Below, in pieces: positions 19,618-37,795 of a DNA stretch of 64,000 nt (within the stretch, counting starts at the first letter, position 1; each line of letters begins with the position of its first letter). Source of the stretch: Candidatus Bathyarchaeota archaeon (GTDB lineage Archaea; Thermoproteota; Bathyarchaeia; 40CM-2-53-6); contig CAWIHH010000004.1 in assembly GCA_963835925.1 (NCBI GenBank), positions 377,289 to 441,288 of the forward strand. The letters are read 5' to 3'. Both the position numbers and the translations under genes were made by a program. The notes under the pieces are model-generated. The model was given only the letters and a program-made list of their open reading frames with translations. It ran no database searches and had not been told where the DNA came from.

Positions 19618-20718
19618 TCAGCTCCTTGCCTTTACCGGAGTGTTGCCCCTAGCTCGGGTTACTTTACCTCTGGGTTTCTGCCGCGCTATGGCTCTGCGAG
19701 GAGACGCACGGGTTTTTCGTGACTTCGTGGTCCGCCGCTCATTATTAGCTAGTCTTCCTTCAATATGAAGCACAAGAGCGAGGAAAGCAACTATCCAGAT
19801 TGGGAACAGGATCTCGCCTATCGAATTATGAAAGGCGTCCAGTTCCTGTCCGGTGTATGCGTAGGCGAAGCCATAGTATGCAATTGTGAAAATCCGGATA
19901 ACGTTTAGGAAAATCGTTCCGAGTACGCCAATTGTCGCATAGATAACTTTCCTCTTGAGCGGCGAGTCCAGCTTTGCAGCGAGCAGTATCATGACTAGCG
20001 AGTAAATGAGCATGCTCTGAACTCCCACGCTGGGCCAGTAGACTGCGAGTCTAAAGAAGCCGTGAACTCCGTTGATGGTGAGGAGATTGCTAAAACCGTA
20101 GATTGGGAGTCCGACAAGCCATGCGAGAAAGCCGACCGAGGCCACAATGGAATTAGCCCAGAACTGTAATGGCCCGATGCTTCCGTATGGGAAGAAGGCA
20201 TCGAGTAGGTAGAAGATGAGCATTCCGATCGACAGGATTATTGGAGTGATAACGCCGCGAACCGCTTTCACACCGAAGAGTACTATTGAGAGCACAAGTA
20301 GATACAACGCCATTACGAAGTAATCACTAGCCATTAGCCAACTGTTGCTAACCTGCCCTGACGCACCTAATGTCTTGCCGACCGAATAGATCATCGCCGT
20401 GAACACGGGCAATACGCCAAGCCCTCCAAAATAGACTAGACCCAGCCCCAGAACTATGATGGCCGCGATTAGGTAGGGTCGGTTGAGACGTGGCTTGTGG
20501 TCTTTTCGAAAGTCCCATAGTTCGAACGCCAAGAAAAACAGCACGAAAAAAAGCCCTCCCCGGCCGAGCTTGCCGAACCCTGCCCAGCTGAGTTCGAAAG
20601 TGTCCGGCGCTAGAGCGAATAACACTAGGACTGGAATTGCGGCCAAGATGAGCAGTAAGTCCGCGGATCTGAGGCGGCTAATCAGGGCTGCTTTGAACTG
20701 CTTCCTCGAGTACTGCAT
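19618..20718 (-). CDS. archaeosortase/exosortase-family homologue with Ser in place of the catalytic Cys; long basic C-terminal tail
   Basis: 366 aa, polytopic. It aligns by eye to the small archaeosortase at 33491-34027: VYWPS230VGVQS vs ERMC77TGVQV, LNVIR275I vs ANVAR119I, and AFH297NSIG vs LAH138YPTG, with similar spacings (37/34 and 20/17 residues). The codon at 20029-20031 is AGC. The last 45 aa are Arg/Lys-rich. Confidence 0.6.
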   Translation of the reverse strand: MQYSRKQFKAALISRLRSADLLLILAAIPVLVLFALAPDTFELSWAGFGKLGRGGLFFVLFFLAFELWDFRKDHKPRLNRPYLIAAIIVLGLGLVYFGGLGVLPVFTAMIYSVGKTLGASGQVSNSWLMASDYFVMALYLLVLSIVLFGVKAVRGVITPIILSIGMLIFYLLDAFFPYGSIGPLQFWANSIVASVGFLAWLVGLPIYGFSNLLTINGVHGFFRLAVYWPSVGVQSMLIYSLVMILLAAKLDSPLKRKVIYATIGVLGTIFLNVIRIFTIAYYGFAYAYTGQELDAFHNSIGEILFPIWIVAFLALVLHIEGRLANNERRTTKSRKTRASPRRAIARQKPRGKVTRARGNTPVKARS

Positions 20719-20742: not shown

Positions 20743-21492
20743 TCAGAAGATTCTGTCTTTCGGGAACACTTCTACGCCAGATTCGGAGATTTGATAGGGC
20801 CGGAGCTGAGTATCATGCGCGACCCCTCTCATCTTCTCAATTTGTATTCCTCGAATCACGTTTCCGTCATGAACCATAGTATGCAAAAGCACAACACCTT
20901 CAGAGAGAAATTCCTCAAGCTGAAATCTACGCTCAAGGACTGATGTTCGAAGCTCACTTATCATCAGACACGAGCATCCTGTTGACTCAAGTGCATCAAA
21001 AAAGAGCAGCAGCGCCTTTCTCCGCTTAACTTCCTCCGGGTATCGAAGCATGAGCGAAGTTATGGGGTCAACAATAATCCTCTGCGTTCCCTCCTCCGCG
21101 GCGATGCGCCTAATCGTTCTCAACAATGAGCCTAACGTCACTTCCGGTAGTGTCAAGGTGATTCGATCTTCTGGGCTAACCATACCCTGACCAATTCTGT
21201 TCGACGGCTTCCGCAGCTCGGTCGCGTCTATGAACGTAATCTTGCCATCATGCTCCAAAGCATCCAAATTCCAGCCAAACGAGGACAGGTTTGCTTTCAT
21301 TCGTTCCGGCTTTTCTTCCAGCGATATATACAGCCCAGGTTCACCCAAGTTTCCCCCGCCGACCAGGAACTGCATACCAAACGTAGTTTTTCCGGATCCT
21401 GGGCTCCCAACAACCAGAATCGTCCGCCCCTTCAGAAGACCACCGTGGAGCATCTCGTCGAGCCCTTTGATTCCTGTAGTGACACGGTCCAA
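20743..21492 (-). CDS. KaiC/RecA-superfamily ATPase (single-domain, archaeal KaiC-like)
   Basis: 249 aa. Has TGIKGLDEMLHGGLLKGRTILVVGSPGSGKTTFGMQF (Walker A), a Walker B region (RIIVDPITSL) and the IQIEKMRG..H tail typical of PF06745-type ATPases. Confidence 0.8.
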   Translation of the reverse strand: MDRVTTGIKGLDEMLHGGLLKGRTILVVGSPGSGKTTFGMQFLVGGGNLGEPGLYISLEEKPERMKANLSSFGWNLDALEHDGKITFIDATELRKPSNRIGQGMVSPEDRITLTLPEVTLGSLLRTIRRIAAEEGTQRIIVDPITSLMLRYPEEVKRRKALLLFFDALESTGCSCLMISELRTSVLERRFQLEEFLSEGVVLLHTMVHDGNVIRGIQIEKMRGVAHDTQLRPYQISESGVEVFPKDRIF

Positions 21493-21680: not shown

Positions 21681-24600
21681 CTATTGGCGTCTGCGGCGTA
21701 GTAGGTATAGTGATGCTGCAAGCGCTGATAGTGCTACGACTGCTATTCCGCTGAACTCTGGGACTGGAATGTTGCTTTGCGGCAATCCAACGTTATTACC
21801 AGAGCCTGGAACGGACGACTGCCCGCTCGTGACACTGATAGTGCCCATTGGTGTTGATCTGTATCCTGGACCTGACATGCTCATACTGTACGTGCCTGGA
21901 ACCAAGTAGAATTCGTAGATGCCATCCTCCGTGTACGATGCGAACGAGGGACCTGTTGCGTTCCCTACCGCCGCGCCTTGCACGGTTACTGTGTACCAGC
22001 TGATGGATCTGAACTCATTGCTCCAGGTGAACGCTAGCGCTGTTCCTGAAATGTATCCGTTCAGGTCGACTTCCCAGATTGCACTGCTCTCTCCGCTCAG
22101 TGGTGCGTTGGTGAAAGTCCACACGCCCTGCTGGCTGTATGGGCCTAGATGGTTGGCGACCATTGAGTGGCCGAGGAAGTACTTGTCCAGTGCCCCGTCT
22201 TCAGTTAAGCTGATGTGGCTTGTTGCTGCTGTGCCTGGAATGATGTGGAACGATTCTCCCATTAGGAGACCTGGAACCACTGGATAGAAGTTGTTGAAGT
22301 AGCTATTGGCTTTGATTAGCTCGTGCTGGCTTATTGGACTGACTGCGGATGGGTCTTGTGGGACCATTGAGTCGTTGAGGTACCAGTTGACGAAGTCTGA
22401 CTCGGCAGTCCAACCCGTACCAGTATAGTCGGGTTGTCCGAGTATGCCTTGGTTGGCGAAGTGTGCTTTGGCAACGGACCAGTAATCGGCTGGCCAATTG
22501 TCAATTTCGAAGTCGCTGCCTGTGCCTGGTGTGAAGACTGGGTCGCCGTACGAAGCGTAAGGAGGAAGACCTGCTGTCTGGATGTGAAGCTGAGTCACTC
22601 CGCCTGGCACGTAGTTCAAGCCACCACCGATTGGGTAGCTAGCGGCCGTCAGTTGAGTGTTGTCCGCTGCTCTAGCTCTACCGTTGCTTGATCCTGGACT
22701 GCCAGTGATGACTGCATTACCGTTGATGTATGTAGTACCGTAGGTGTAGACGCCTTCGCTTGACATCCATTCTGCGACTAGTCTGCCTGAGTCGTCGAAG
22801 AAGCGTACTCTCGCTGACATGTTGTAAGGTGTTCCAGTGACCAAATGCTCCTTCTTGAAGATTATGTCCAATGTCAGGTTTACGCCGATTAGAAGGTTAA
22901 TTTTCATGTCGGCGATTTGGCCCTTGTTAACGTAGATCGCGTAATCTTTGTCTTGTATGTAGCCGTAGGTTTGGCCTTGGAAGAAGTATTGACCGGAATC
23001 GAGTGCTCCTGGGTATAGGTGGCTATCGGTGAACAGGCCCCAAGCGTTCTTGGCGCTGCCGACGGTGAACACGTCATAACTCCACATGTATCCACCAACG
23101 TCACTACCTGTACCTGCAGGACAGCTTAGGCTGGTGCAGGCATTACCTGTCTTCGTTACGGGTATAGCCTCATCGTTGTCTCCAGCGAAGTAGGCGACTT
23201 CTTTTCCGAACCAGACATATTTCGCGTTGCCTGTTCCTCTGCCTTCTATCTCGCTAAAGTATGTTGAGCGGTTCTGGAAGTAACCTATAGTCCCGAAAGC
23301 GTTGCCCGCTTTGTTTAGCCCTGCTTCATCTCCTGTACAAACGTAACATGCGGCTGCGACGAAGCTGTATTTGCTGTCGTAGACTCCGATGCTGATGTCC
23401 TTGCCGTTCCAGACCCAGTTACGATTAACTCTAGGTCTTTCCCAGTCAATGCTGTACACGGTGAAGTTGAAACCAACACCACGATACAAATGATTACTGA
23501 CTAGAATTGGAGTTCCACTGAGTGTGACTGAGACTAGGTCCTGGGTTTGTTGTAGGTAACCTAACGCTTGCACCTTCGGTCTATAGGTGCCAGCTGGGAT
23601 ACCGTAATTTTGTCCAAGCCAAGTGCTGTTGAACCCGTAGAAGGTAACATACGAGTTACCGTACTGGTTCATGTAATTGATATTCGCTTGCTGCTGCGCT
23701 AATAGATTGTTCGTGTACGTCGTGCCGTACGCTAGACCGGTGAAATCCGTGAATACAGGTTGAGCAGTTGCGCATGGGTATTGAGTGGTACCGCAGAGCA
23801 ATGTTTGGTTGTAAGAGTACAATACGCCTGATCGGGAATCCAGTAGACTACCAACCAGAACATTTGCGCCCGTATCGATTGGACTTGTAACTAATGTTCC
23901 TGCGTTGTCGTGGAAGTGAACTGTCTTGTTAACCCAACTGCTAATCCTGAGGTCGAGTGGAATCGAAATGTCACCAGCCCACTCGTTCGGAGTGACCTGG
24001 AACGAATATTCTTGGAATGTTGCGCCGTCAATGGCGGTTTGAACGTATCGGAAGACCCACGCGCGAACGTAGTATCTTCCAGCCGTCAACCCGTTAACCC
24101 ATGTGGCGTAGCGTTGTGGAACGTGTCCATCAAGGTCTCTGGGAGCACCGAACATGCCTTTCTCTCCGAACTCATAATGGAACTTGTCGTTAACACCGTC
24201 AGCGACAACATACCAATTCTGAGCCGGACCAACACCCTCTGGATCAGTGGATGGCGTTGCTCCGGTGAACACTCCACCAGGGCCGCCAAGAACTTGGTTC
24301 CAGTAGGTATCGGGGGCGCCGATGCCGCTAATAGGGGCACCTCCCCATGGGAAGGCGATTTTCTGAGCTGTTCGTGGATCTCCACAAGCATTTGCGTCAT
24401 CTCCTGGGTAGTAGTTTGTTTGACCGCCCGCGACGCATGGTAGCGGGGACCAGGAGACTAGGCTAGCGTTTGAGCTGGGTACGTTGTTGACTGTGGGTTT
24501 ATCGTAAAGTTCAATCTTAATGTACTCTCTTCCCGGACCGTTGGTACCAGTGAACTGTCCTATTCCATTAAAGCAGGCGCTAACACTAGCACAGTATCCG

Positions 24601-25193
24601 TCAGCAGTGTAGGGTCCTGTATCACCGTAGAAAGGCCATGGTTCTGATCCGAAAGCGTGTTTACTGAACACGTCTCCGTGAATTACTGGACCAGGGTTCA
24701 AGTATCCATCAAAGTGCAACGATTGCCCCTTGAGAACCTGAACGTTAGTGGCGATTGGTGTAAGCGGATATCCAGCAGCCTCAGCGTAGAGGGTGTAAAC
24801 GCCTGGCGCAACACCTTCCACCTCATAATGGCCGTCAGATGTTTCGTTGAAGTAGCCGACTGCATCAGCACAACCAACCGCAGAAGGATTGCTCGCCTTA
24901 GTGCAGTCAACCACACTCTTGCCAGTGTACGGATCAAACTTGGTCTGCATTTGAGCCCAAACTTTACCCGCCAATTCAACTGGTTGACCGTAGAGTGTTG
25001 AGTTGTAACCACCGTACTTGATTGTTCCAGTAATGATGGATGGATCAAGCTCACCCTTCACAAGCAGCACAGGCCAGTTAGGAGTAGGAACCCAACCTGA
25101 TGGGTCAGCTGTGCCTGTCTGGGCATTTAGTGGACCGGTAAGGGTACTGGGTATAATTCCAGCGCCGTTCGGTCCAACGCTTTGGGACGTCAC
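21681..25193 (-). CDS. giant PEF-CTERM surface (S-layer-like) glycoprotein candidate
   Basis: 1170 aa, rich in Tyr/Gly/Thr/Asn with many N-x-S/T sequons. It has repeated G.Y..... motifs (GVAPGVYTLYAEAAGY, IPAGTYRPKVQALGY, LVPGTYSMSMSGPGY) like carboxypeptidase-regulatory/Ig-like modules. The C-terminus is NIPVPEF-SGIAVVALSALAASLYLL-RRRRQ. There is no N-terminal signal peptide in this ORF (see finding). Confidence 0.75.
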   Translation of the reverse strand: MTSQSVGPNGAGIIPSTLTGPLNAQTGTADPSGWVPTPNWPVLLVKGELDPSIITGTIKYGGYNSTLYGQPVELAGKVWAQMQTKFDPYTGKSVVDCTKASNPSAVGCADAVGYFNETSDGHYEVEGVAPGVYTLYAEAAGYPLTPIATNVQVLKGQSLHFDGYLNPGPVIHGDVFSKHAFGSEPWPFYGDTGPYTADGYCASVSACFNGIGQFTGTNGPGREYIKIELYDKPTVNNVPSSNASLVSWSPLPCVAGGQTNYYPGDDANACGDPRTAQKIAFPWGGAPISGIGAPDTYWNQVLGGPGGVFTGATPSTDPEGVGPAQNWYVVADGVNDKFHYEFGEKGMFGAPRDLDGHVPQRYATWVNGLTAGRYYVRAWVFRYVQTAIDGATFQEYSFQVTPNEWAGDISIPLDLRISSWVNKTVHFHDNAGTLVTSPIDTGANVLVGSLLDSRSGVLYSYNQTLLCGTTQYPCATAQPVFTDFTGLAYGTTYTNNLLAQQQANINYMNQYGNSYVTFYGFNSTWLGQNYGIPAGTYRPKVQALGYLQQTQDLVSVTLSGTPILVSNHLYRGVGFNFTVYSIDWERPRVNRNWVWNGKDISIGVYDSKYSFVAAACYVCTGDEAGLNKAGNAFGTIGYFQNRSTYFSEIEGRGTGNAKYVWFGKEVAYFAGDNDEAIPVTKTGNACTSLSCPAGTGSDVGGYMWSYDVFTVGSAKNAWGLFTDSHLYPGALDSGQYFFQGQTYGYIQDKDYAIYVNKGQIADMKINLLIGVNLTLDIIFKKEHLVTGTPYNMSARVRFFDDSGRLVAEWMSSEGVYTYGTTYINGNAVITGSPGSSNGRARAADNTQLTAASYPIGGGLNYVPGGVTQLHIQTAGLPPYASYGDPVFTPGTGSDFEIDNWPADYWSVAKAHFANQGILGQPDYTGTGWTAESDFVNWYLNDSMVPQDPSAVSPISQHELIKANSYFNNFYPVVPGLLMGESFHIIPGTAATSHISLTEDGALDKYFLGHSMVANHLGPYSQQGVWTFTNAPLSGESSAIWEVDLNGYISGTALAFTWSNEFRSISWYTVTVQGAAVGNATGPSFASYTEDGIYEFYLVPGTYSMSMSGPGYRSTPMGTISVTSGQSSVPGSGNNVGLPQSNIPVPEFSGIAVVALSALAASLYLLRRRRQ
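21684..21761 (-). other. PEF-CTERM tripartite sorting signal
   Basis: A PEF motif, a 17-18 residue hydrophobic helix and an RRRRQ cluster at the extreme C-terminus. Confidence 0.8.
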
Positions 25194-25963
25194 TGGTTAG
25201 CGTCTTCCAGGAACATTTTGAAGAAGTATCTGCCAGCGATCGTTGGTGCAGTTACACCGTTGACTCTAACATAATACCATTCATCTTGTCCCGTGTAGAA
25301 GTGAATTGGGTTATTCCCGCCGTTGCATGCCCCGTCCGCACACGTTCCTGTATCAGCGAGGATTCTGATTAGAGTCCAGCCTGGAACGTATCGGTCGTAT
25401 GCATTAGCAGTGAAAGTCCAAATGTTCGCGTAATTGTTTGTGATGGTTGTAACGACTTGTTCAGGTGTGTTTGGAACTTTGAACTCAGGAGGGATAGCGA
25501 TCCAGAGTGCGCTGTACTGGCACGTAGGTCCCGGGCAACTGGCCCATGTTCCGGTGCGGTTGATTGCGAAGATCAAGTCACCCGTCGAACCGACCACAAT
25601 AGCGCCGAAAGGCGCGTACTCATCACCGTCAGATTGGGCATAGTTCTGAGACCAAATGGTTGGGTAGAGACCTGCTTTCGTTAAGGCGTTGACTGGATAT
25701 GGTGCGACATATCCGGGTCCTACAATCTTCAAAGTGTTAGGTACACTTCCAGTTGGAGAACCGTCGTATGTGTCTTCACCACCACCAGGCCAAACATACC
25801 CAATTACGCCTGGGATGTGCGGATCAAAGTTCGTCACTGTGTATGGGTAAGCGCCTTCGTTGTTCAACCCAAGCGTAAAGTGCGCTTGGACTGGAGCGAG
25901 GATTGCGATTGTACTTAGTAGGAATATTGCTATAGTTAGACTTGCAGCTAATTTCTTATTCAA
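25190..25963 (-). CDS. secreted protein (signal peptide), possibly the N-terminal part of the PEF-CTERM giant protein
   Basis: 257 aa, TTG start, with signal peptide LTIAIFLLSTIAILAPVQA-H and no anchor. It ends AGRYFFKMFLEDANQ* and overlaps the GTG of the next ORF by GTGA. Its composition is similar to the 1170-aa ORF, and it has a related motif (AGRYFFKMF vs AGRYYVRAWVF). Confidence 0.55.
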   Translation of the reverse strand: MNKKLAASLTIAIFLLSTIAILAPVQAHFTLGLNNEGAYPYTVTNFDPHIPGVIGYVWPGGGEDTYDGSPTGSVPNTLKIVGPGYVAPYPVNALTKAGLYPTIWSQNYAQSDGDEYAPFGAIVVGSTGDLIFAINRTGTWASCPGPTCQYSALWIAIPPEFKVPNTPEQVVTTITNNYANIWTFTANAYDRYVPGWTLIRILADTGTCADGACNGGNNPIHFYTGQDEWYYVRVNGVTAPTIAGRYFFKMFLEDANQ

Positions 25964-26130: not shown

Positions 26131-27655
26131 CTACGAGCGCCCAAAATTTGGATTTTGTGCTTGAAAGCCAACCGCGCTGGCTCGTCTCTTTGCGACGCTG
26201 CGCGATCGGGTTTTGACTTTCGCTCTAGGTTTAGAGCGTTTCGCTCTCAGAGTCAAGGCGCCCGCAAGGAGAACGATTGCGATGATCGCGATTATTCCGT
26301 ATATGAAATCTGAGCGTTGTTCCACTGGGGGTTGAGTTAATGTGGTTATTTCTACGGTTTCTTGCGTTGTTTGTTCCATGGTTGTGGAAGGCGTTCGACG
26401 CCGTAACTGTTGCGAACGAGACTGGGTATTCTCCTGGAATGCTTACGTACGCGGCCCTTACCAAAGCGTACAGTGCTAGTGCATCAACGCCAAGATCAGC
26501 GTACCCGATGGTACCGTTACGATCAATTCCTGCATAGAACCCTCCACCGCCAGCGGGGCCCGTTGCACTCTGCAGGTCCGTGGAAAGTTCATTTTTCCCA
26601 GTTATCCAATCATACAATCTTGACGAATCATTCCAGTAAACCTCGGGACCGAGGTTGATCCAAACATCCACCGTCGCTTGAAGTACCGACGTCACACCCA
26701 TGGTTGTCTTCGGGTATGAGATCACACCTCCAGTTCCCCTTCCGTATGCTATGCCACCCCAAGAGTCGAAGAGTCTCTCCACGAAACCAACCATCCAGTC
26801 AATCATCACCTGCTTGAGATCTGTGATGGATGGTTGGAAGTCTTGAAGGAGCAGTGAGGCTGCCTTGTAGTAGCTGTTCAACCCGAACATGATGAGTCCA
26901 TTCTCGAAGGAAGGTTGAAGTGTCCTGCTTTGGTCGGAGTAGAATCCCCCAAAGCCCCAAACGGAACTGTTTTTCTCCTGAAATGAAAACAGCCAGCTCG
27001 CGATGTTCTGGGCCAACTTGGCATATTTAGTTGCGAGATTTCCGTCTCCCCAGCTATGTTCGAACAGCGCGATATAGGTGAGGCTCACGAGGAGCGCTGC
27101 GTTCGCTGCAATATCAGCTCTGGTCGTCCCATCGGAAAAAGAGAACACTACCGCACCATCGTTATTCTGAGCGGAGACAACCCATGAGTCTACGCATTTC
27201 CTGAGGATGTCGATCACACCCGCCCAATATGTTTTCTCAGCTTGGTCTTGACTTGTGATTACAAATGCCGCGTATGCTGGTCCCATCATTGCATACGAAT
27301 TCCAAGAATAGAGCCGTCCTCCGTTGCTCCAGCTTTGGTTGTTGAGATCGAAATACTCATAGAAATCTCCGGAAGCAGTTTGCGCTCTTCCAATGAAATC
27401 CGCTGAAGTTTTGATATACGAATAGGAATCTTGGGAGTAATGCGTTTCCTGATAAGCTGAAAGAGCCAAAGCTACTAGACTGGCGTCTTCCGAGTACATT
27501 CTTCCAGGCTCCCCTGTACCGGGTGCATGTAAGAAACCTCGCGCCTGAGAAGTGGCGTGCAGCTGGTCCTCGATGAATCCTATCTCTGATCTGAGCCTAT
27601 CCTCAATCCCGCGAGTGGCAGCACCGTGAGCAGAACTAAAGGAACTTACGAACAA
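26131..27655 (-). CDS. secreted repeat-helical (possibly alpha/alpha-toroid) protein with Thr-rich linker and C-terminal anchor; frame broken once (fragments 26231-27655 and 26131-26379)
   Basis: The 474-aa ORF ends in a low-complexity, out-of-frame-looking tail. The overlapping frame reads TTMEQTTQETVEITTLTQPPVEQRSDF-IYGIIAIIAIVLLAGALTL-RAKRSKPRAK, which is a linker, a helix and a basic tail. The body has many W/Y/G-rich helical repeats, and its function is unknown. A signal-like NIKRFFALFAILLL continues in frame upstream of the first canonical start. Confidence 0.45.
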
Positions 27656-27877
27656 GAGTAGGATTGCAAAGAGGGCGAAAAATCGTTTGATGTTCGTCTC
27701 GCGCTCCCTCCTCAGTCGCCTATGTACCTCTCAGAATTGCAGGTTATAATTTCCTTTCCGTCTGGAACCCGGTTGCACATGAGCAGACCCAACGAGCATT
27801 CTAGAGCGGCGAAAAGCTACGCGAACTACGCGAATCTCCAATAACCCTAAATTGGGACGAAGAAGTACCGCCCGTGG

Positions 27878-30034
27878 ATGTCGTTGACGCGGCCACGCTT
27901 CTTGTTCATGGTCCTCGCGCTTCTAATCATTATAACGCCGAGCGCGAGCGTTTGGCCCCAAGCGTCACCCATCAATTACATCGTACTCTATGCGCACACT
28001 TCCAACAATTCTCGCATCCTAAACGCAGTCCCAAACTGGGGCGGCATCAGAATCGAGAACGTGAACGGGACACTGAGTTTCAAACTGACCCCCACACTTG
28101 GAGAGAATTTGCGAATCACCGGTGCAATAGCTGTAACGCTCTACATGCGAGCTACTTCTGGAGTTCTGAGCAATTTGAATTTCAGCTTGACTGAGCTCAA
28201 AAGCACCGGAGTGCAGGTGCCCGTTCCCGGAGCGAAAATTCAATCACTCACAGTATTAGACACGCGATTTCTCCCATTCACGGTGGGCGTTGGCGTAATT
28301 GACTATGAATTTCAAAAGGGTTCTGCGATCGTGCTCTCGGTCCGAGTAGACGCCAACAGCGCCACGCCTTATCTCGCATGGGATGACCCCTCGGCGCCCA
28401 CTAGCATCACACTTCCAGCCGTGAGCCCACTGCATGTTGCAATCACATTTCTAGATTATCAATCCCATCGAGCAAATCTGATTCAAACCGAGAATCAGAC
28501 CAGTTTAGTTCAAGTGCACTTCAGAGCAAACGTGACGGATCCAATAGGAATCTACCGATTGAACAACGCCATAGCAATTATCAATGCACCAAACGGAACT
28601 TCTTCAAGAATTCAACCAGCACAGCAATTCATCTCGCAATATGCCAACGATTACTCTTTTGATCTTGCGCTGGGTGCGGGATCATGGCACGTGACTCTTG
28701 AAGTCAATGACAAGTCGGGTGGCGTTTACGATTTCTTAGGCGAAATCTTAGTGACTCCATTCTATCACGTCGAAGTAAACGTCGTCGATTCGTCAGGAAG
28801 AGGTCTGGCGAATGCCTCGGTAAGCGTCTTCTACCAACAGCTTCAGGCTTGGAGTGGTGTTACAAATTCCACTGGGTGGGTACCGCTCGAATTGCCCGAC
28901 ACGGGAATAGTTGGCCCATTGAATCTAACGGTGAGTTGGTCGGGGGTGCAATCGTTTTCAGAGCTGAAGGTGGTGGGGAGAACCATGAGCGTTGTGAGGG
29001 TTCCTGTGTTTGATAAGACTGTGCGCCTGACTGTGGGCGGAATCCCCCTGCCGGGGGCAACAGTTCGGTTGCTCAAGAACAGCAGGACGCTGACCCAAAC
29101 CTTCAGTGGGTACGATGGCACGGTAACCTTCCACGGTCTGCCGATGAACAATTACACTCTGAGTGCCCAGTATCTATTCAGTCAATTCAATATGACTTTG
29201 AATGTGAACTCGAGCGAAATTTCAACCATCAATCTCCCCGTCCCGCATCAACCTGAACTGGTAACCTTAGTGCTGGTAGCTGGAGTTGTAGCGGTGACAG
29301 CGCTCGAAAGGAGAAGAAGAAAATCATACCCGCAGAGTTTCGGTTACTTTAATCAGCTAACTTCTGGCGGGCTACCTCAAACCTGTTTCGCGTTAGTGAC
29401 CGGTAACTCTGGAGCGGGCAAGAGCGTTCTCTTGGAAACTCTTGCGATCGAACACTCGACCATAGGGCAGAGCGTATTCATCACTAACACCGAGTCCCCT
29501 CGGAAGATCCGCGAAAGCATGAGAAGTATCGGAATGAAGGGGGAATTTGAAAATGCGCGAATTGTCTTCGTGGATGCCTATTCGGCGATTGGCGGTGCGA
29601 ACTCTGAAGAGAAATTTGCAGTGTCCTCGCACACTGACCTCACGGGTCTGGGATTGGTGATCTCGAAATGTCTTTCTGAAACAGGTCCTGGAACGGACGT
29701 GTACATAGATTCCATCAGTCCACTATTAGCTGATCTTCGAGTCAACTTCGTAATCAATTTCCTGAACTCCGTCGCGGTCAAGGTAAAATCCAACAATGGC
29801 AAACTCTGCGTTACGACAGGCACGGGCATAGAGAAATCTGACCTTAGCAAAATAGAGGAGGTAGCGGACTGCGTAATTGAAACGCAACTCCAAGAATCTC
29901 GGCGCGGCCAAACAAGAAGACTGCGAATAAAGAAGCTGCGCGGCAAAGCCTACGTCGACAAGTGGGTTAGCTTCCACATAGAAGCAGACAAGGGCATAGT
30001 TTTCTTTTCGAGGACCAAGCCGATCAAAGACTAA
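27878..30034 (+). CDS. membrane-tethered KaiC-like ATPase with large N-terminal extracellular beta-rich domain
   Basis: 718 aa. A signal peptide (FLFMVLALLIIITPSASV) is followed by about 440 aa with sequons and carboxypeptidase-regulatory-like modules (VEVNVVDSSGRGLANASVSV..., GATVRLLKNSRTLTQTFSGYDGTVTF). Then come a TM helix plus ERRRRK, and a C-terminal ATPase (LTSGGLPQTCFALVTGNSGAGKSVL..., DVYIDSISPL, RLRIKKLRG). Confidence 0.7.
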   Translation: MSLTRPRFLFMVLALLIIITPSASVWPQASPINYIVLYAHTSNNSRILNAVPNWGGIRIENVNGTLSFKLTPTLGENLRITGAIAVTLYMRATSGVLSNLNFSLTELKSTGVQVPVPGAKIQSLTVLDTRFLPFTVGVGVIDYEFQKGSAIVLSVRVDANSATPYLAWDDPSAPTSITLPAVSPLHVAITFLDYQSHRANLIQTENQTSLVQVHFRANVTDPIGIYRLNNAIAIINAPNGTSSRIQPAQQFISQYANDYSFDLALGAGSWHVTLEVNDKSGGVYDFLGEILVTPFYHVEVNVVDSSGRGLANASVSVFYQQLQAWSGVTNSTGWVPLELPDTGIVGPLNLTVSWSGVQSFSELKVVGRTMSVVRVPVFDKTVRLTVGGIPLPGATVRLLKNSRTLTQTFSGYDGTVTFHGLPMNNYTLSAQYLFSQFNMTLNVNSSEISTINLPVPHQPELVTLVLVAGVVAVTALERRRRKSYPQSFGYFNQLTSGGLPQTCFALVTGNSGAGKSVLLETLAIEHSTIGQSVFITNTESPRKIRESMRSIGMKGEFENARIVFVDAYSAIGGANSEEKFAVSSHTDLTGLGLVISKCLSETGPGTDVYIDSISPLLADLRVNFVINFLNSVAVKVKSNNGKLCVTTGTGIEKSDLSKIEEVADCVIETQLQESRRGQTRRLRIKKLRGKAYVDKWVSFHIEADKGIVFFSRTKPIKD

Positions 30035-30252: not shown

Positions 30253-32562
30253 CTAGTTAGCGACGGCCCTGGCCACTAACACGCTGAACCCTAGCGGTAC
30301 GAGCAGGGCGTTGCTTGCTACCAAAAGAAGCGTTGAAGCCGTAAGCAGCGACTGGGGGACCGTTAGAAAGGACCCGCTTGCGATCAGAATGGCTAGCGTA
30401 GCGATCCACATGGTAAACAGTGGGATAAGCCATATAACGCTCGGCGACCGCCGATTCTTTGATGCGCGGTAGGAAAATATTACTGCGCTTATTGGGAAAA
30501 CGAACACGAATCCAAGCAAGAGGCTTCCTATGAAATAGCCAACCACTGGAGCACCTCCTGAAACTAGCAATGCGGCGAGTAGAGCCCCAAGTGCCAAGAA
30601 TGCCCGAGCCAGAGCGATGGGTGTGGAGGCAAACAGCCAACCATTTGTCACCTTCGGCAATTCTTGAGAAATGTTTGGCAAATTAACTGGGCCGCCCAGA
30701 TTTGCAGGAGCCGTGGTTTGTACCTTCACGGGCACCATGTCCCAGGATGAGACATGTCTTGCGTCACCTTGCCAGTACGCTCTTACAGTGTAGGATCCGG
30801 GCGCGTCTGGGGTCCAGGCGTAGGAGAAGAGCCCCCCCTGCCCTGTAGAGACATTCGCAATAGGTTGCCAATTCTCTCGGTCCGCACTGAACGACAAATG
30901 CACCGTTGAAAAATTGTCATCCACCGATAGCGATCCAGATATGGTCACCGGGTCCCCGGATATAGCGGAGACAGGGTTCACCTGAACGGTAATTGATGAA
31001 GGAGCTTTTTGTTGACTCGTGAAAACGACATTTATCGTAGTGGGTTTCGTCACGTTAACGATAGAAGTGGAAACCTGACCGTTAACTTGAAGGTCTATGA
31101 AGTTGTAGTTAACAGATGTTGCATGAATCTGTGTCGTGGGTACTTCGACGTCTAGTTGAGTATTATTGTCGGCCCAAAGTTCAGCTGCCTCGGTTCCATT
31201 GACTACTGTTGGTTTGCCGTTCACGTTGACCACAACAGTAGAATTCTTGGGGACGCCTGATAATTGGAGTTTAACGTCGTACTGTGTTTTCCAATTGGCG
31301 GTTACGTGTTTCGCCGAGTTCATAAGGACGTATCCTGTGCTTGAAGCGGAATTGTAGTCTCCGCTGAAACCTAGGAAAACCCGACGAGTACCATTTTGCG
31401 AACTCAAAATACTAGGAACACTAAAGGTCGCGTTAGTTCCGGCCTGATACCAACCCGCCCCTTTGCCATTGGAGTATTTGTTTTCGATCGTCAACGAGTA
31501 TTCCGTACGGTAGTTTGCCACGAGTTGAATGAGGGAATTCACACTCATATTGAGTGGGTTTGCTGTGCCATAATTGTCCCATGAGGAGAAACGCATTCTC
31601 ATGCCGTTTGTCGACGAAGTCTCATTTGGCACTTCGACCGATGCCCAATCGCCTGGGACGCCCACTGATAGTACGCCATTACTGTTCGTTTGAAATGGGA
31701 AACCATCGACTTTAACGATTGAACTTGATGTTGGAAGCCTTATCTCTAGAGTGGAGGCAAAATGGCCGTTGACCCATTGCGCATCGAATGCCCTACCTCC
31801 GGGGGTTCGGAAATCGTTGAGCCTAAGTTGATGTTCAAGAATCGTGTGATGCAGGTCGCTGTTTTGCATGTAGAGTATGGCGAAGTAGTAATTTCCAAGG
31901 TCGTCCGATAGAAGTGACCAGAGTTCGTTGTAGTCGTCGGGGCCGTTAAAGACTTGGGTCTGGAGAGAGGCTAGCTTCAAGCTAATTGAACCATTCAACA
32001 CCGTACCATAATTCCCATCCACGAATATCTCACGCCCTAATACTGTGAAGCTGTTGGGAGCCTGGGATTTGACGTCAAAGTGTGGAGTTGGGGATGTTTA
32101 CCGAACCTGTGTTCACCAGTTTGCGGGAGATCTGTTGGGTGCCTTCTACGACTATTGTGTTGTAACTTCCACCCTGATATTCGAAAATTCTAAGCACGAT
32201 TTGGCTCGAGGAATTGGTCAAATAGAGGAAGGCGATGTAGAAGTCGTTCTGCGTTACATTCGCCAAGAAAATGATGTTGACTGGTCCACTGTCCCAATTC
32301 GCCGTCACATAACTCCATGGTATCAGTGTTATCTTTGAACTGTCAGTTGAAAGATAGCCTCCTTGGGGAGAGAGGTTCAGTGAGTAACCACTGCCAACTC
32401 CTTTGGCCGAGAAGTCTGGAACCTGATGAATTGCAGATCCGGGGGTTAGGAGTGGCGAGCTAATCGGTCGAGCGTCTGCGGCTCCAGTTCCATGGACCAC
32501 AATAGCGCGATCGTCAAGAGTACGAGAGAAAACGCCGTGGTCTTCCGACTGGTTTGGGTCAC
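30253..32562 (-). CDS. large surface protein with InlB-B-repeat-like modules and C-terminal polytopic region; two frame breaks (fragments 30253-32022, 32075-32500 and a signal-peptide frame from GTG 32562)
   Basis: The frame of the 589-aa ORF stays open upstream (..FDVKSQAPNSFTVLGREIF-VDGNYG) and meets the 141-aa ORF near 32078. A third frame from GTG 32562 encodes MTQTSRKTTAFSLVLLTIALLWS, a signal peptide. Repeats such as GWYQAGTNATFSV...RVFLGFSGDYNS...VTANWKTQY are present. The C-terminus has about 4 helices. Confidence 0.5.
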
Positions 32563-32848: not shown

Positions 32849-33323
32849 ATGAGGCTAGCCCCTTACGCGGTTGGCATTGGGAATGTTACTAGCGTCTTTG
32901 TCCTCACGGCGCCCGCCATTTCAGCGCTATCCCCGCAGGGCGGCGGCCTAATTTTCGGCTGGGTTTACGGGTTCACTTGGGATAATCAGCTTGTTCCGCT
33001 TGCGTGGGTCCAAGTGACCGCATCAAATCCTAATGCCCTATCCAAATGCGCTATTCACTATCTCGACTGGGGGAAATGGAGTATTTGAAATGAACGTGCC
33101 CGCGGGAACTTACAATCTGACAGTTTCACCGCCCGGATTCCAAGCGCATAGCTCAATGGTGTCGGTGTCTGACGGCTCCTCATCATCAACCGCTTTCTAC
33201 TTGGAACAGTCCCACGTCCCAATTCCCGAATTCCCCACCCAGTGGGTCGCCTTGATACTCACCATTGCCCTAGCAACGACACTGCTCACTAGGAAGAACA
33301 CAAGACGCAAGCGCCAGCCGTGA
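32849..33323 (+). CDS. small PEF-CTERM protein with one carboxypeptidase-regulatory-like domain; frame broken once (fragments 32849-33088 and 33033-33323)
   Basis: Frame A reads ..GWVYGFTWDNQLVPLAWVQVTASNPNA and frame B reads YPNALFTISTGGNGVFEMNVPAGTYNLTVSPPGFQAHSSMVSVSDG. Together they make one beta-sandwich module. The C-terminus is HVPIPEF-PTQWVALILTIALATTLL-TRKNTRRKRQP. Confidence 0.6.
33225..33320 (+). other. PEF-CTERM tripartite sorting signal
   Basis: A PEF motif, a hydrophobic helix and a basic cluster at the C-terminus. It shares the context (I/V)P(V/I)PEF with the giant protein. Confidence 0.75.
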
Positions 33324-33490: not shown

Positions 33491-34027
33491 ATGGACGATC
33501 AACGCAGCGAACGCCGGCACCAAGTCTACCTGCTCATGCGTTTTGCTGGAATTGCCTCAATTATCGCCATCGTTCTGTATTACGTGCCTAATTATTTCTT
33601 TCTTGAAAAGATCACAGCTGAGCACTCCGCCACGTTAATGGAGCTTATGGGAATCAAAGCTACCGTATGGACTCAGGGGAACTCGGTATTCCTGAACCAG
33701 TTCGAAGTTGAGCGAATGTGCACCGGCGTCCAGGTGGTTACAATATTCCTCGGGATTCTCGTAGCCCTCCCTAAGGCTGATGTCAAGCGAAGGATTCTGG
33801 CCTTTGGCGTCATCGCCATAAGCGTCTACTTCGCTAACGTTGCTCGCATAGCGTTTGAGATTTGGCTACTCTACACCGGGACCCTACCTTGGTCTCTCGC
33901 ACACTATCCCACGGGACTAATACTTGGGGTCTTTTCCGTAGCCTTCCTCGTGGTGGTTGCCGACCACTTCCTACCCGAAGTGGGAGACTTGGCATTCTCA
34001 GCCCTGGACGGTTTCCGAAGGGCGTAA
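33491..34027 (+). CDS. small archaeosortase/exosortase-family protein (canonical Cys/Arg/His)
   Basis: 178 aa with 4-5 helices. Has ERMC77TGVQ (the CxG nucleophile motif), ANVAR119I and LAH138YPTG. It lies directly downstream of the small PEF-CTERM gene. Confidence 0.7.
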   Translation: MDDQRSERRHQVYLLMRFAGIASIIAIVLYYVPNYFFLEKITAEHSATLMELMGIKATVWTQGNSVFLNQFEVERMCTGVQVVTIFLGILVALPKADVKRRILAFGVIAISVYFANVARIAFEIWLLYTGTLPWSLAHYPTGLILGVFSVAFLVVVADHFLPEVGDLAFSALDGFRRA

Positions 34028-36628: not shown

Positions 36629-37795
36629 TCAGAGGATAACGAACGAGAGAGCGAGGATTACCAGAGATGTGGCGAAGAGCGCCTTTCGTGAGTTTGACAG
36701 CGGTGAAACGTCGTCCAACGGTATGACGCCGTGGAGTGGACTTCGGCTGGCGAACATGAATGCGATGAGGAGGATTGCGAATGGCCAGAAGCCTGCTGCA
36801 ATAAGAGTTGCGAAGCCAAGAAATGCTCCAAGCTTGTGACCTTGGTCGCCTAAAGTCGCCCGGGAGATGTGACCGCCATCGAGCTGCCAGATAGGGAGTA
36901 AGTTCAGGAAGGTGATTAGTGCACCGACCTGGACGGCAAAGAATACGCTCGGTAGGACCATATCATAGCCTGTAGGCGGGTTTCGTAATCCTGCCTGCTG
37001 AATTAACTCTACGAGTAGGGGCACGTTAGGCCAAGCAGTTGACACGAGAAGTTTTTCGGTCATTAAGGTCTCAAGCTGCTGAGCGCCTATTATGGGGGCG
37101 GTCATTATCATGAAAATTCCCACAGTGAGAGTTGCTAGGAATCCGGCAACGGGGCCGCTAAATCCAAGGTCGAATAGTTGGTCGCGATTTGCAGGTGCAC
37201 CCCGGAGGGAGATCATCGCGCCGAATGTTCCGATTGGTGGGGGAGCTGGCACGAAGTATGGCAAGGTCGCGTCCATTTTATGATGACGAACGGCCATAAG
37301 ATGCCCGGTCTCGTGGAGCCCCACTATTCCCAGTATTGAGATGGAGAACACTAACATTTGTTGACCCGACCCGGAGCCGGCAAATAGGATAGTACTCACT
37401 CTTGGGTCGATCGTGGAGATGTAAAAGTAGCTTGCCAGGCTAACAGTGGCCACAGTAGCCAGGAAGAGAATCAGGTTGATTATTTTGCGAGGTTGAGTGA
37501 GCTTTGGTTTTGGGAATACTGAGATCACGAGTTTGCCAGCGACCTTCTGGATCCTGGCCATTAGGTTGTGATTTGCGAGGTCACGCAAGAGCTCTTGGAA
37601 CTTATCTTTGATCGGCTCCTGCGCAGCCGCGAAGGTGGCCATGCCATAGGTATCTACGTAGGCATCTAGCAGGTTGAAGCGATATTCGACCATGCTCTTG
37701 ATCGATCCAAAATCCAGAGGATAAACTGGCAGAGTTAAGGTTGCAGATTGTGACGGTTTAGATGACACCGGAAGGCCTTCCGAGGTTCTCCGCAT
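36629..37795 (-). CDS. M50 (site-2 protease) family membrane metalloprotease
   Basis: 388 aa. Has HETGHLMAV (HExxH) and NLLPIWQLDGGH, in a polytopic protein. Confidence 0.8.
   Translation of the reverse strand: MRRTSEGLPVSSKPSQSATLTLPVYPLDFGSIKSMVEYRFNLLDAYVDTYGMATFAAAQEPIKDKFQELLRDLANHNLMARIQKVAGKLVISVFPKPKLTQPRKIINLILFLATVATVSLASYFYISTIDPRVSTILFAGSGSGQQMLVFSISILGIVGLHETGHLMAVRHHKMDATLPYFVPAPPPIGTFGAMISLRGAPANRDQLFDLGFSGPVAGFLATLTVGIFMIMTAPIIGAQQLETLMTEKLLVSTAWPNVPLLVELIQQAGLRNPPTGYDMVLPSVFFAVQVGALITFLNLLPIWQLDGGHISRATLGDQGHKLGAFLGFATLIAAGFWPFAILLIAFMFASRSPLHGVIPLDDVSPLSNSRKALFATSLVILALSFVIL

Follow-up and report, generated by a model that had tools for sequence, protein, structure and literature searches.

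Architecture of the membrane-anchored KaiC-like protein

The 64,000-nucleotide (nt) stretch of Candidatus Bathyarchaeota DNA analyzed here, referred to in its entirety as the window, encodes a 718-amino-acid (aa) single-pass membrane protein with a KaiC-like domain at its C terminus, which we call TM-KaiC (positions 27878-30034; Table 1). From its N terminus the protein comprises a signal peptide, four β-sandwich domains, one helix, the sequence ERRRRK and a P-loop domain of the KaiC/RecA fold. An original prediction made from the sequence had described a signal peptide, a sequon-rich ectodomain with carboxypeptidase-regulatory-like (CarboxypepD_reg) modules and a single transmembrane helix followed by ERRRRK, and hydropathy analysis, sequon counts and Pfam recovered each of these elements; the motifs GNSGAGKS, DVYIDS and RLRIKKLRG that it had listed are likewise all present, the last at aa 681-689. 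Hydropathy reveals two hydrophobic stretches only, at aa 8-26 and aa 459-477. The first constitutes the h-region of the signal peptide, with R5 and R7 in the n-region before it and, directly past it, Q28, which is conserved in 91% of 90 homologues. AlphaFold2 (AF2) models the signal-peptide region as a helix (aa 7-19) and a low-confidence stretch (aa 20-28); the full-length model drew on 32 sequences and reached a predicted local distance difference test (pLDDT) score of 85.

The distribution of sequons, cysteines and charges is strongly asymmetric about the second hydrophobic stretch. The first 470 residues contain 12 N-x-S/T sequons, compared with 5.2 ± 2.0 in shuffled sequences, and the cytoplasmic part contains none. 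Among the 90 homologues, sequons occur at 2.22 per 100 aa outside (0.97 after shuffling) and 0.40 per 100 aa inside (0.63 after shuffling), with conserved positions at N239, N312, N330, N349 and N425, the last four of which lie in the two membrane-proximal domains. Cysteines in the same proteins average 0.33 outside and 4.5 inside, and the net charge beside the helix is +0.5 before it and +4.4 just after it. Because all three asymmetries agree, the N-terminal part is placed outside the cell, and together with hydropathy they rule out a cytoplasmic location for it. The proposed type I topology, in which a complete domain of the KaiC fold lies in the cytoplasm, is thus upheld, with further support from Pfam, AF2 and Foldseek, and by these measures TM-KaiC is a type I surface protein for which N-glycosylation is predicted from the sequons.

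More than 100 full-length homologues of about 720 aa, with 35-82% identity and from independent assemblies, have the identical domain order, and the gene is uninterrupted at 17 genomic loci, nearly all of which are labelled Bathyarchaeia from peat and soil. The fusion is therefore no assembly artefact, and neither of the two objections named alongside the original prediction, a cytoplasmic N-terminal domain or a fusion made by an assembly indel, holds. That an assembly indel joined a surface-protein gene to a KaiC gene, or that the open reading frame (ORF) was miscalled, was considered since a neighbouring giant gene is split in this assembly, but found no other support, and it is made exceedingly improbable by the equal length and order of the uninterrupted ORFs, the gap of just 2 residues between helix and KaiC domain, and the conservation of sequence across the junction.

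On reading positions 27640-27940 upstream of the gene, no clear TATA/BRE (transcription factor B recognition element) promoter was found. Assignment to a defence system was rejected, as PADLOC gave P-loop-level matches only (E ≥ 0.0014), and Pfam and NCBIfam searches at E ≤ 0.1 returned no HisKA/HATPase_c or protein-kinase domain in TM-KaiC.

Table 1. Features of TM-KaiC and of the genes around it (window coordinates)
Feature	Position	Strand	Basis
TM-KaiC gene, 718-aa single-pass membrane KaiC-like protein	27878..30034	+	ORF with ATG start; Pfam, NCBIfam; homologues; AF2
Signal peptide, aa 1 to ~29	27878..27964	+	Hydropathy; AF2; cleavage site inferred
D1, aa 32-182, jelly-roll β-sandwich with invariant LYAH strand	27971..28423	+	AF2, pLDDT ~90; Foldseek
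D2, aa 186-280, Ig-like sandwich	28433..28717	+	AF2
D3 (aa 283-374) and D4 (aa 377-453), transthyretin-like CarboxypepD_reg modules, membrane-proximal stalk	28724..29236	+	Pfam PF13620 twice; AF2
Juxtamembrane motif L-P-V-P-H	29234..29248	+	Column counts in 90 homologues
Transmembrane helix aa 458-481 ending in basic anchor RRRRK (478-482)	29249..29323	+	Hydropathy; one continuous AF2 helix
KaiC/RecA-fold domain, aa 484-712	29327..30013	+	Pfam; alignment to KaiC CI; column counts; Foldseek
Walker A GNSGAGKS, aa 509-516	29402..29425	+	G509, G512, G514, K515 invariant in 90 homologues
Walker B region DVYIDS, aa 607-612	29696..29713	+	D607, D611, S612 invariant in 90 homologues
Q678-x-R-R-x-R-x-K-K-x-R688-G block	29909..29944	+	Column counts; aligns to KaiC RRLRI.K.RG
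Soluble single-domain KaiC, 249 aa, dedicated partner by gene linkage	20743..21492	-	Pfam KaiC, E 1.3e-59; PDB alignment; tree
Ser-type (thaumarchaeosortase-like) archaeosortase	19618..20718	-	NCBIfam TIGR04297, 142.7 bits, below cut-off 250; TIGR04178 signature
Giant PEF-CTERM surface protein, split into 257-aa and 1170-aa ORFs	21681..25963	-	Tail; collinearity; synteny
589-aa surface protein, Ig-like, polytopic C terminus, convergent with TM-KaiC	30253..32022	-	Pfam Big_3_5, weak; synteny
Small PEF-CTERM protein, tail HVPIPEF + helix + RKNTRRKRQP	ending at 33323	+	Translation; synteny
Short 178-aa archaeosortase	33491-34027	+	Pfam Exosortase_EpsH, 2.4e-09; conserved synteny

A complete KaiC-fold domain at the membrane

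The cytoplasmic domain matches the Pfam KaiC family (PF06745) over aa 490-712, spanning profile positions 7-229 of 231 (E = 1.5e-24; 87.1 bits against a cut-off of 26.6), and Foldseek aligned it with PH0284, SSO2452 and KaiC CI at target TM-scores of 0.78-0.86. It is the most conserved part of the protein, with a mean column identity of ~0.75 compared with 0.5-0.6 outside. Beyond the Walker motifs, the block beginning at Q678 is conserved to a similar degree, with Q678, R683, K686 and R688 invariant and R680 and R681 present in 88-89 of 90 homologues; we take this block to carry the trans-acting Lys/Arg of the KaiC ring interface (a presumed arginine finger). The catalytic E-E of KaiC, which in CI is presumably the pair E77/E78, is replaced by T538-E539, the first position being Thr in 71 of 90 homologues and the second Glu in 78 or Asp in 11. 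With Thr at the position of the first catalytic Glu, the ATPase may therefore be slow or mainly nucleotide-binding. Alignment to PDB sequences places E660-E661 at the position of the KaiC CII phosphosite, as in CI-type domains. The cytoplasmic domain thus reads as a complete KaiC-fold nucleotide-binding module that is probably ring-forming, with hydrolysis possibly slow.

TM-KaiC scores below threshold for the KaiC, ArlH and archaeal KaiC equivalogs of NCBIfam. It differs from clock KaiC in having a single domain, in scoring 29.6 bits with TIGR02655 (cut-off 546) and 64.8 bits with PRK09302 (cut-off 408), and in lacking the Ser/Thr phosphosites of CII; the ArlH/FlaH model NF052589 gave 49 bits against a cut-off of 215.

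The basic anchor at the end of the transmembrane helix is conserved (R478, R479 or Lys, and R480), and AF2 begins the first KaiC strand at aa 484. The linker consequently measures about 2 residues, and in the model the KaiC domain is held flush against the inner membrane face. On the other side of the helix, the homologues share a motif with the consensus (V/L)P(F/L/V)PH(R/Q), which reads LPVPHQ in the window protein; P454 is retained in 86, P456 in 88 and H457 in 71 of the 90 homologues. This juxtamembrane motif resembles the (I/V)P(V/I)PEF of the PEF-CTERM tails encoded at the same locus.

The ectodomain was modeled separately by AF2 from 17 sequences (pLDDT 89), and its division into four sandwiches is our reading of that model. 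Within the D1 strand LYAH, Y38 and H40 are invariant. A Foldseek search of the PDB yielded a low root-mean-square deviation (rmsd) match, 4-5 Å over 210-225 columns, to the C-terminal β domain of CocE/NonD hydrolases (3ib3, 1ju3), which we attribute to D1, the aligned query residues not being given in the Foldseek output. The same search matched the ectodomain to the TIE protein, SdrD, the SlaB stalk, Gram-positive pilins and macroglobulin MG arrays. D2 is precisely absent from 625-645-aa variants of other genera, in which query residues 6-184 and 293-710 are found in one ORF. A phmmer search of the ectodomain against all window ORFs, which would reveal kinship with neighbouring surface proteins, gave nothing.

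A family of membrane-anchored KaiC proteins with exchangeable ectodomains

Queried with nothing but the cytoplasmic domain, a set of 1.84 billion representative proteins yielded 847 matches at E ≤ 1e-3 and 71 at E ≤ 1e-30, with lengths of 560-1689 aa and the domain at the extreme C terminus. An N-terminal extension of at least 280 aa is present in 66 representatives, 64 of which have a strongly hydrophobic 19-mer and basic cluster just upstream of the domain and 63 of which keep Walker A; the sequons of these extended proteins are confined to the N-terminal part. The ectodomains of the paralogues match PKD, CARDB, MG2, Big_1 and CarboxypepD_reg in Pfam, and some paralogues have a degenerate P-loop. 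A match occurs in 53 of the 151 Bathyarchaeia genomes compared, as full-length orthologues at 27-33% identity, as the 625-645-aa variants or as paralogues, and in one genus up to 6-7 paralogues per genome share the helix and KaiC domain only. In databases these proteins carry generic names, such as 'KaiC/GvpD/RAD55 family RecA-like ATPase', 'ATPase domain-containing protein' and 'PKD repeat protein/...'.

In a FastTree phylogeny of 107 KaiC domains, for which the supports quoted are local Shimodaira-Hasegawa (SH)-like values only, one branch (support 97) unites 78 rows and includes the window protein. Seventy of these rows are membrane-anchored, and 8 were not called anchored by our filter, at least some of them being truncated at the N terminus or falling marginally short of the hydropathy threshold. 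The tree is consistent with one origin of the membrane-anchored domains followed by ectodomain shuffling. Across the clade, the module of helix and KaiC domain is constant and the adhesin-type ectodomain is exchangeable. TM-KaiC itself possesses each of the elements that define a receptor-like membrane KaiC: a signal peptide, a β-sandwich array, a helix with a basic cluster and a KaiC domain of this clade.

Several members depart from the common plan (genomic loci are given as L and genomes as G numbers, as labelled in our comparison, G000 being the window's own genome). At L035:5801-8389 and L036:5098-7711, soluble KaiC genes lie on both sides of the gene for a 345-355-aa protein related to the TM-KaiC domain, forming a three-KaiC cassette; this protein is soluble, has a ~110-aa N-terminal extension and lacks the helix and a canonical Walker A. 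Proteins at L029:6061-8580, L032:4950-7040 and L033:6026-8068 have 60-220 aa without a Pfam match beyond the KaiC domain, and the paralogues at L028, L031 and L034 lack a canonical Walker A and so may be inactivated members. At L043:387-4912, two more small KaiC-like genes and one for an 875-aa REC+PAS protein lie beside a CARDB/PKD-type member and its partner, a neighbourhood that may link the module to two-component signalling. A PKD-type member and partner at L041:5903-9900 stand beside phage-tail-like Pfam matches (Phage_tube_2 and, weakly, HK97-gp10_like), which could be a provirus or tailocin neighbour. Genes of the Bathyarchaeia type also occur in bacterial bins, at L002 and L003 (labelled Acidoferrum and Methylomirabilota), of which L002 has the whole syntenic cluster, and at L018 (Rikenellaceae); L002 and L003 are probably mis-binned.

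A soluble KaiC protein accompanies TM-KaiC

The original prediction had pointed to a soluble KaiC-like ATPase beside the sortase as a possible partner and paralogue of TM-KaiC. Such a gene is present and adjoins the thaumarchaeosortase-like gene, on the minus strand. Its 249-aa product is a canonical, CI-like KaiC with GSPGSGKT and E-E, matching KaiC structures at E 4e-54, and its orthologues (52-61% identity) are the top match in each genome. From adjacency and co-occurrence counts that were read by hand from match tables, 29 of the 33 Bathyarchaeia genomes with a strong TM-KaiC match have the gene for this orthologue directly adjacent, mostly in convergent orientation with 10-45 nt between the stop codons. 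The other four are the window genome (6.4 kb apart), G131 (95 kb apart), and G046 and G083, in which the partner is off the contig of the match. Inspection of individual loci confirmed the pairing at L002, L015, L016, L018, L025, L026, L030 and L037-L040, and three distant metagenome members of PKD/CARDB type (domain identity 33-35%) likewise have a convergent soluble PF06745 gene, here with a 4-nt overlap. The partner KaiCs are monophyletic in the tree of 107 domains (support 95), and the window copy is orthologous to them.

At the level of gene linkage, the partnership of TM-KaiC with the soluble KaiC is thus strongly supported. The suggestion of paralogy fares less well, as the two proteins are no close paralogues: the TM-KaiC domain and the 249-aa KaiC score 16 bits by phmmer and belong to separate clades.

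Other neighbours of the pair include an M48 protease, an aquaporin, a CDF transporter and a GT2 protein. In genus g2, a conserved 277-298-aa protein with six predicted helices and no Pfam or NCBIfam match is encoded beside the partner KaiC (L025:4241-5071, L026:8592-9485, L040:4806-5636). An archaeosortase as universal third partner was considered and rejected, since these six-transmembrane neighbours at L025, L026 and L040 lack a family match and genera g2 and g3 lack the Ser-type sortase.

TM-KaiC belongs to an archaeosortase/PEF-CTERM cluster

The orthologue group of TM-KaiC that is represented in the window belongs to a Ser-archaeosortase/PEF-CTERM surface-protein cluster, a connection that the original prediction had missed. 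At L001-L016, the TM-KaiC gene is flanked on one side by a gene for a giant protein ending in NIPVPEF + helix + RRRR, beyond which come the genes of the soluble KaiC, the Ser-type archaeosortase and GT-C-like membrane proteins. The other side carries a ~970-aa PPIPGF protein and/or a relative of the 589-aa protein of the window, a small HVPVPEF + helix protein and a short archaeosortase. At L016 the whole cluster lies on one strand, and in L037, G103, G137 and G073 the TM-KaiC gene directly adjoins that of the Ser-archaeosortase.

In the window, the gene for the giant protein (tail NIPVPEF + helix + RRRRQ) lies between the partner KaiC and TM-KaiC genes. In six related loci, single ORFs of 1382-1473 aa run collinear with its 257-aa ORF, which contains the signal peptide, and its 1170-aa ORF, and so does an intact paralogue of 1451 aa encoded elsewhere in the same genome (78-81% identity). 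We therefore regard them as one gene split at 25190-25193, whether by a frameshift, a sequencing indel or recoding. The ~970-aa protein, which has a PGF-type tail (PPIPGF + helix + RRRR) and is convergent to TM-KaiC at L001, L004-L007, L009 and L016 (for example L005:12259-15180), is absent from the window, where only the 589-aa relative is found. With both PEF- and PGF-type proteins and two sortase genes, the cluster thus carries two tail types and two archaeosortases. Elsewhere in the window's own genome, several proteins that differ greatly in length (1451, 685 and 160 aa) share the identical 35-aa tail VGLPQSNIPVPEFSGIAVVALSALAASLYLLRRRRQ (for example C4:692814-697169, C4:801395-803452 and C4:48050-48532). 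PEF-type tails number at least 12 in this genome and PGF-type tails at least 5.

We tabulated co-occurrence in the 151 Bathyarchaeia genomes, calling the Ser-archaeosortase at E ≤ 1e-40. The enzyme and the window type of ectodomain are both present in 22 genomes, the ectodomain type occurs without the enzyme in 1, and the enzyme without the ectodomain type in 2, one of which has a contig-truncated match. In 13 of these 22 genomes a single contig carries both genes, no more than 10 kb apart. In two sister genera, eight genomes are devoid of the Ser-sortase and carry a TM-KaiC with a different ectodomain, a contrast that argues for a functional tie between the window ectodomain type and sorted surface proteins. 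Because the KaiC pair occurs elsewhere without a sortase, this link is specific to the window orthologue group rather than to the whole family.

An M50 site-2 protease (36629-37795, minus strand) was considered as a partner in regulated intramembrane proteolysis and rejected, as it is absent from L016, L037 and L038. It is syntenic with the cluster in close relatives only (56-64% identity), and since it is missing from more distant loci, the link is probably mere conserved gene order.

A possible route from the cell envelope to KaiC-type regulation

Taken together, these features suggest that TM-KaiC is a transmembrane coupler, or receptor, between the status of the envelope and KaiC-type regulation, a reading to which we assign a probability of about one half. 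The nucleotide sites of RecA-fold proteins would form between subunits, with the K686/R688 block acting in trans. Contacts of the ectodomain with the sorted surface layer or its glycans, or clustering with them, could then set the oligomeric and nucleotide state of a membrane KaiC ring; such control would be possible because the sites are inter-subunit, no homologue varies at the trans-acting K686 and R688, and the domain is fixed tightly at the membrane. The membrane ring, a T-E variant that is probably slow, might engage a ring of the catalytically competent (E-E) soluble KaiC, either stacked like the CI and CII tiers of KaiC but assembled in trans, or in mixed rings, and the soluble ring would relay this state to cytoplasmic targets. 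TM-KaiC may, in this capacity, be the missing receptor for archaeal KaiC signalling.

A number of considerations weigh against this interpretation. The signalling role is read from architecture and gene neighbourhood, and the interaction of the two KaiC proteins is a prediction from gene linkage; in the window itself the genes are not adjacent, being separated by 6.4 kb with PEF-CTERM genes between them. Inspection of the genes beside the pair uncovered no conserved output component, DNA-binding or otherwise, and Pfam identified no PAS, Cache, CHASE or HAMP sensor domain in TM-KaiC. The resemblance of the ectodomain to adhesins, pilins and the SlaB stalk fits a structural or assembly role as well, and with Thr in place of the first catalytic Glu in most members, ATP turnover may be minimal. 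In addition, phylogeny confounds the co-occurrence with the sortase, as nearly all positive genomes belong to a single order. Of the transmembrane sensor originally proposed, then, the topology, the fusion and the gene linkage with the soluble KaiC hold up, whereas the sensing function has to contend with an adhesin-type ectodomain lacking a recognized sensor domain.

Alternatively, the membrane KaiC ring and its soluble partner could be part of a machine, serving the archaeosortase pathway as an ATP-driven factor for assembly or quality control that could hold, extract or hand over PEF/PGF-tailed C-terminal helices, or organize the sortase and the GT-C glycosylation enzymes. Its analogues would be the membrane-anchored RecA-fold ATPases of secretion systems (VirD4-type coupling proteins, FtsK/EssC) and the AAA ATPase of bacterial PEP-CTERM/exosortase loci. 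The close syntenic and distributional association of TM-KaiC with the Ser-archaeosortase and its substrates would be explained, as would the abutting of the TM-KaiC and sortase genes in several genera, the very short linker that puts the ring at the membrane, and the likeness of the juxtamembrane VPxPH to the VPxPEF of the substrates. The module of helix and KaiC domain with its partner nevertheless lacks an archaeosortase context at L025, L026, L030, L039, L040 and L041-L044 and in genera g2 and g3, the lost catalytic Glu argues against a high-turnover motor, and we know of no ATP requirement in sortase-type transpeptidation. We therefore regard such a role as a serious but distinctly less probable alternative, with a probability of about one in four.

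A mainly structural role appears unlikely. TM-KaiC would then be a SlaB-like anchor or an adhesin for other cells or a substrate, its KaiC tail serving as a platform for oligomerization or anchoring with nucleotide as a structural cofactor. The Foldseek similarity to SlaB, Gram-positive pilins, adhesins and MG arrays, the many positionally conserved sequons, the adhesin-type repeats found in all paralogue ectodomains and the T-E in place of the catalytic E-E are all compatible with this proposal. It is the cytoplasmic domain, however, that is most conserved; the invariant Walker A and B motifs and trans-acting Lys/Arg are hard to explain for a passive anchor, and a dedicated soluble KaiC partner is conserved across the family.

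We give similarly low odds to a more specific proposal, in which the membrane segment of TM-KaiC (VPxPH + helix + RRRxK) would mimic the sorting signal of the locus (VPxPEF + helix + RRRR) and dock in the substrate groove of the Ser-archaeosortase. The KaiC ring pair would then gate the sortase from the cytoplasmic side, or be released when cleavage of the mimic sheds the ectodomain, which would make it a signalling device coupled to the sortase and based on a KaiC double ring that two genes supply in trans. The family as a whole would constitute a new class of archaeal single-pass receptors with a RecA/KaiC transmitter in place of a kinase. In the window's own genome, 13 of 277 internal segments with a helix and basic cluster carry [IVL]PxP, 8 of them PEF-CTERM tails and one TM-KaiC, a distribution that is suggestive of such mimicry, but not decisive.

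Under the coupler reading, these observations bear on the broader question of how information from outside would reach the KaiC-like ATPases of archaea. These organisms possess few transmembrane receptors of the classical kind, and it is solely on genomic evidence that KaiC-like ATPases have been put forward as their principal hubs of signalling. The large monophyletic family described here offers a concrete, testable candidate, in which a KaiC domain is wired to an ectodomain via one helix and accompanied by a dedicated soluble KaiC. Bathyarchaeia are abundant soil and sediment archaea for which, to our knowledge, there is no genetic system; the cytoplasmic domain and the soluble partner are both small and soluble and lend themselves to expression. 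In this lineage the module has ties to the Ser-archaeosortase/PEF-CTERM pathway, which is poorly understood, and could show how the envelope is built or monitored.

Comparison with known systems

The single-domain archaeal KaiC-like ATPases (PH0284, 2dr3; PH0186, 2zts; SSO2452, 2w0m) and KaiC CI have the same complete RecA/KaiC fold as TM-KaiC, and share with it Walker A, Walker B, the N-terminal 'F..L.GGLP' strand, the RRLRI.K.RG block and EE at the CII phosphosite position. TM-KaiC differs from them in being anchored to the membrane behind a 430-aa sequon-rich ectodomain, in having Thr for the first catalytic Glu and in forming its own clade, and it scores far below every curated NCBIfam equivalog cut-off.

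ArlH/FlaH, the KaiC-like component of the archaellum motor, is described as binding ATP and autophosphorylating, and its oligomerization matters (bioRxiv 10.1101/2021.03.19.436134; PMC8978795). It is comparable to TM-KaiC in being one KaiC-like domain which, at the membrane, modulates a surface-structure machine in a nucleotide-dependent manner, but ArlH is soluble and recruited by ArlI/ArlJ, whereas TM-KaiC comes with a helix and an ectodomain of its own. Among the annotated locus neighbours, no archaellum or type IV pilus genes stood out, although no search was aimed at such genes; the annotated neighbours of TM-KaiC are sortases, glycosyltransferase-like proteins and surface proteins.

The membrane segment of TM-KaiC has in common with PEF(G)-CTERM signals (TIGR04296, paired with thaumarchaeosortase TIGR04297) a proline-rich motif, a helix and an Arg cluster. 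It has PH(R/Q) instead of PEF, and because its helix and Arg cluster are internal, with 236 aa beyond them, it is no C-terminal sorting tag. SlaB of Sulfolobus acidocaldarius (8qox; Foldseek E 3.7e-08) similarly presents a string of β-sandwiches above a membrane anchor, yet the match is of a generic multi-sandwich kind with high rmsd, and SlaB is without a cytoplasmic ATPase domain.

By analogy only, TM-KaiC recalls bacterial PASTA kinases (such as PknB) and eukaryotic receptor kinases, in which a variable ectodomain and one helix are combined with a nucleotide-using cytoplasmic domain that depends on oligomerization; lineage-specific expansions with swapped ectodomains are a further likeness. 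The transmitter of TM-KaiC is, by contrast, a RecA/KaiC P-loop domain with no kinase fold, and phosphotransfer is not part of the analogy.

Full-text literature searches, which left out Makarova, Galperin and Koonin 2017 (mBio), returned no description of a membrane-anchored, ectodomain-bearing KaiC. A role in regulating archaeal surface structures has been suggested for KaiC-like ATPases (PMC4858521), and members of COG0467 are named 'RecA-superfamily ATPases implicated in signal transduction'. Also close in concept to TM-KaiC are the archaeal KaiC-like 'signal transduction hubs', as these are cited in PMC5847659 and PMC6393860. Such hubs, like TM-KaiC, combine a KaiC-family ATPase with variable input modules and partner KaiC proteins; in TM-KaiC, the input would be an extracellular domain joined to the ATPase via one membrane helix.

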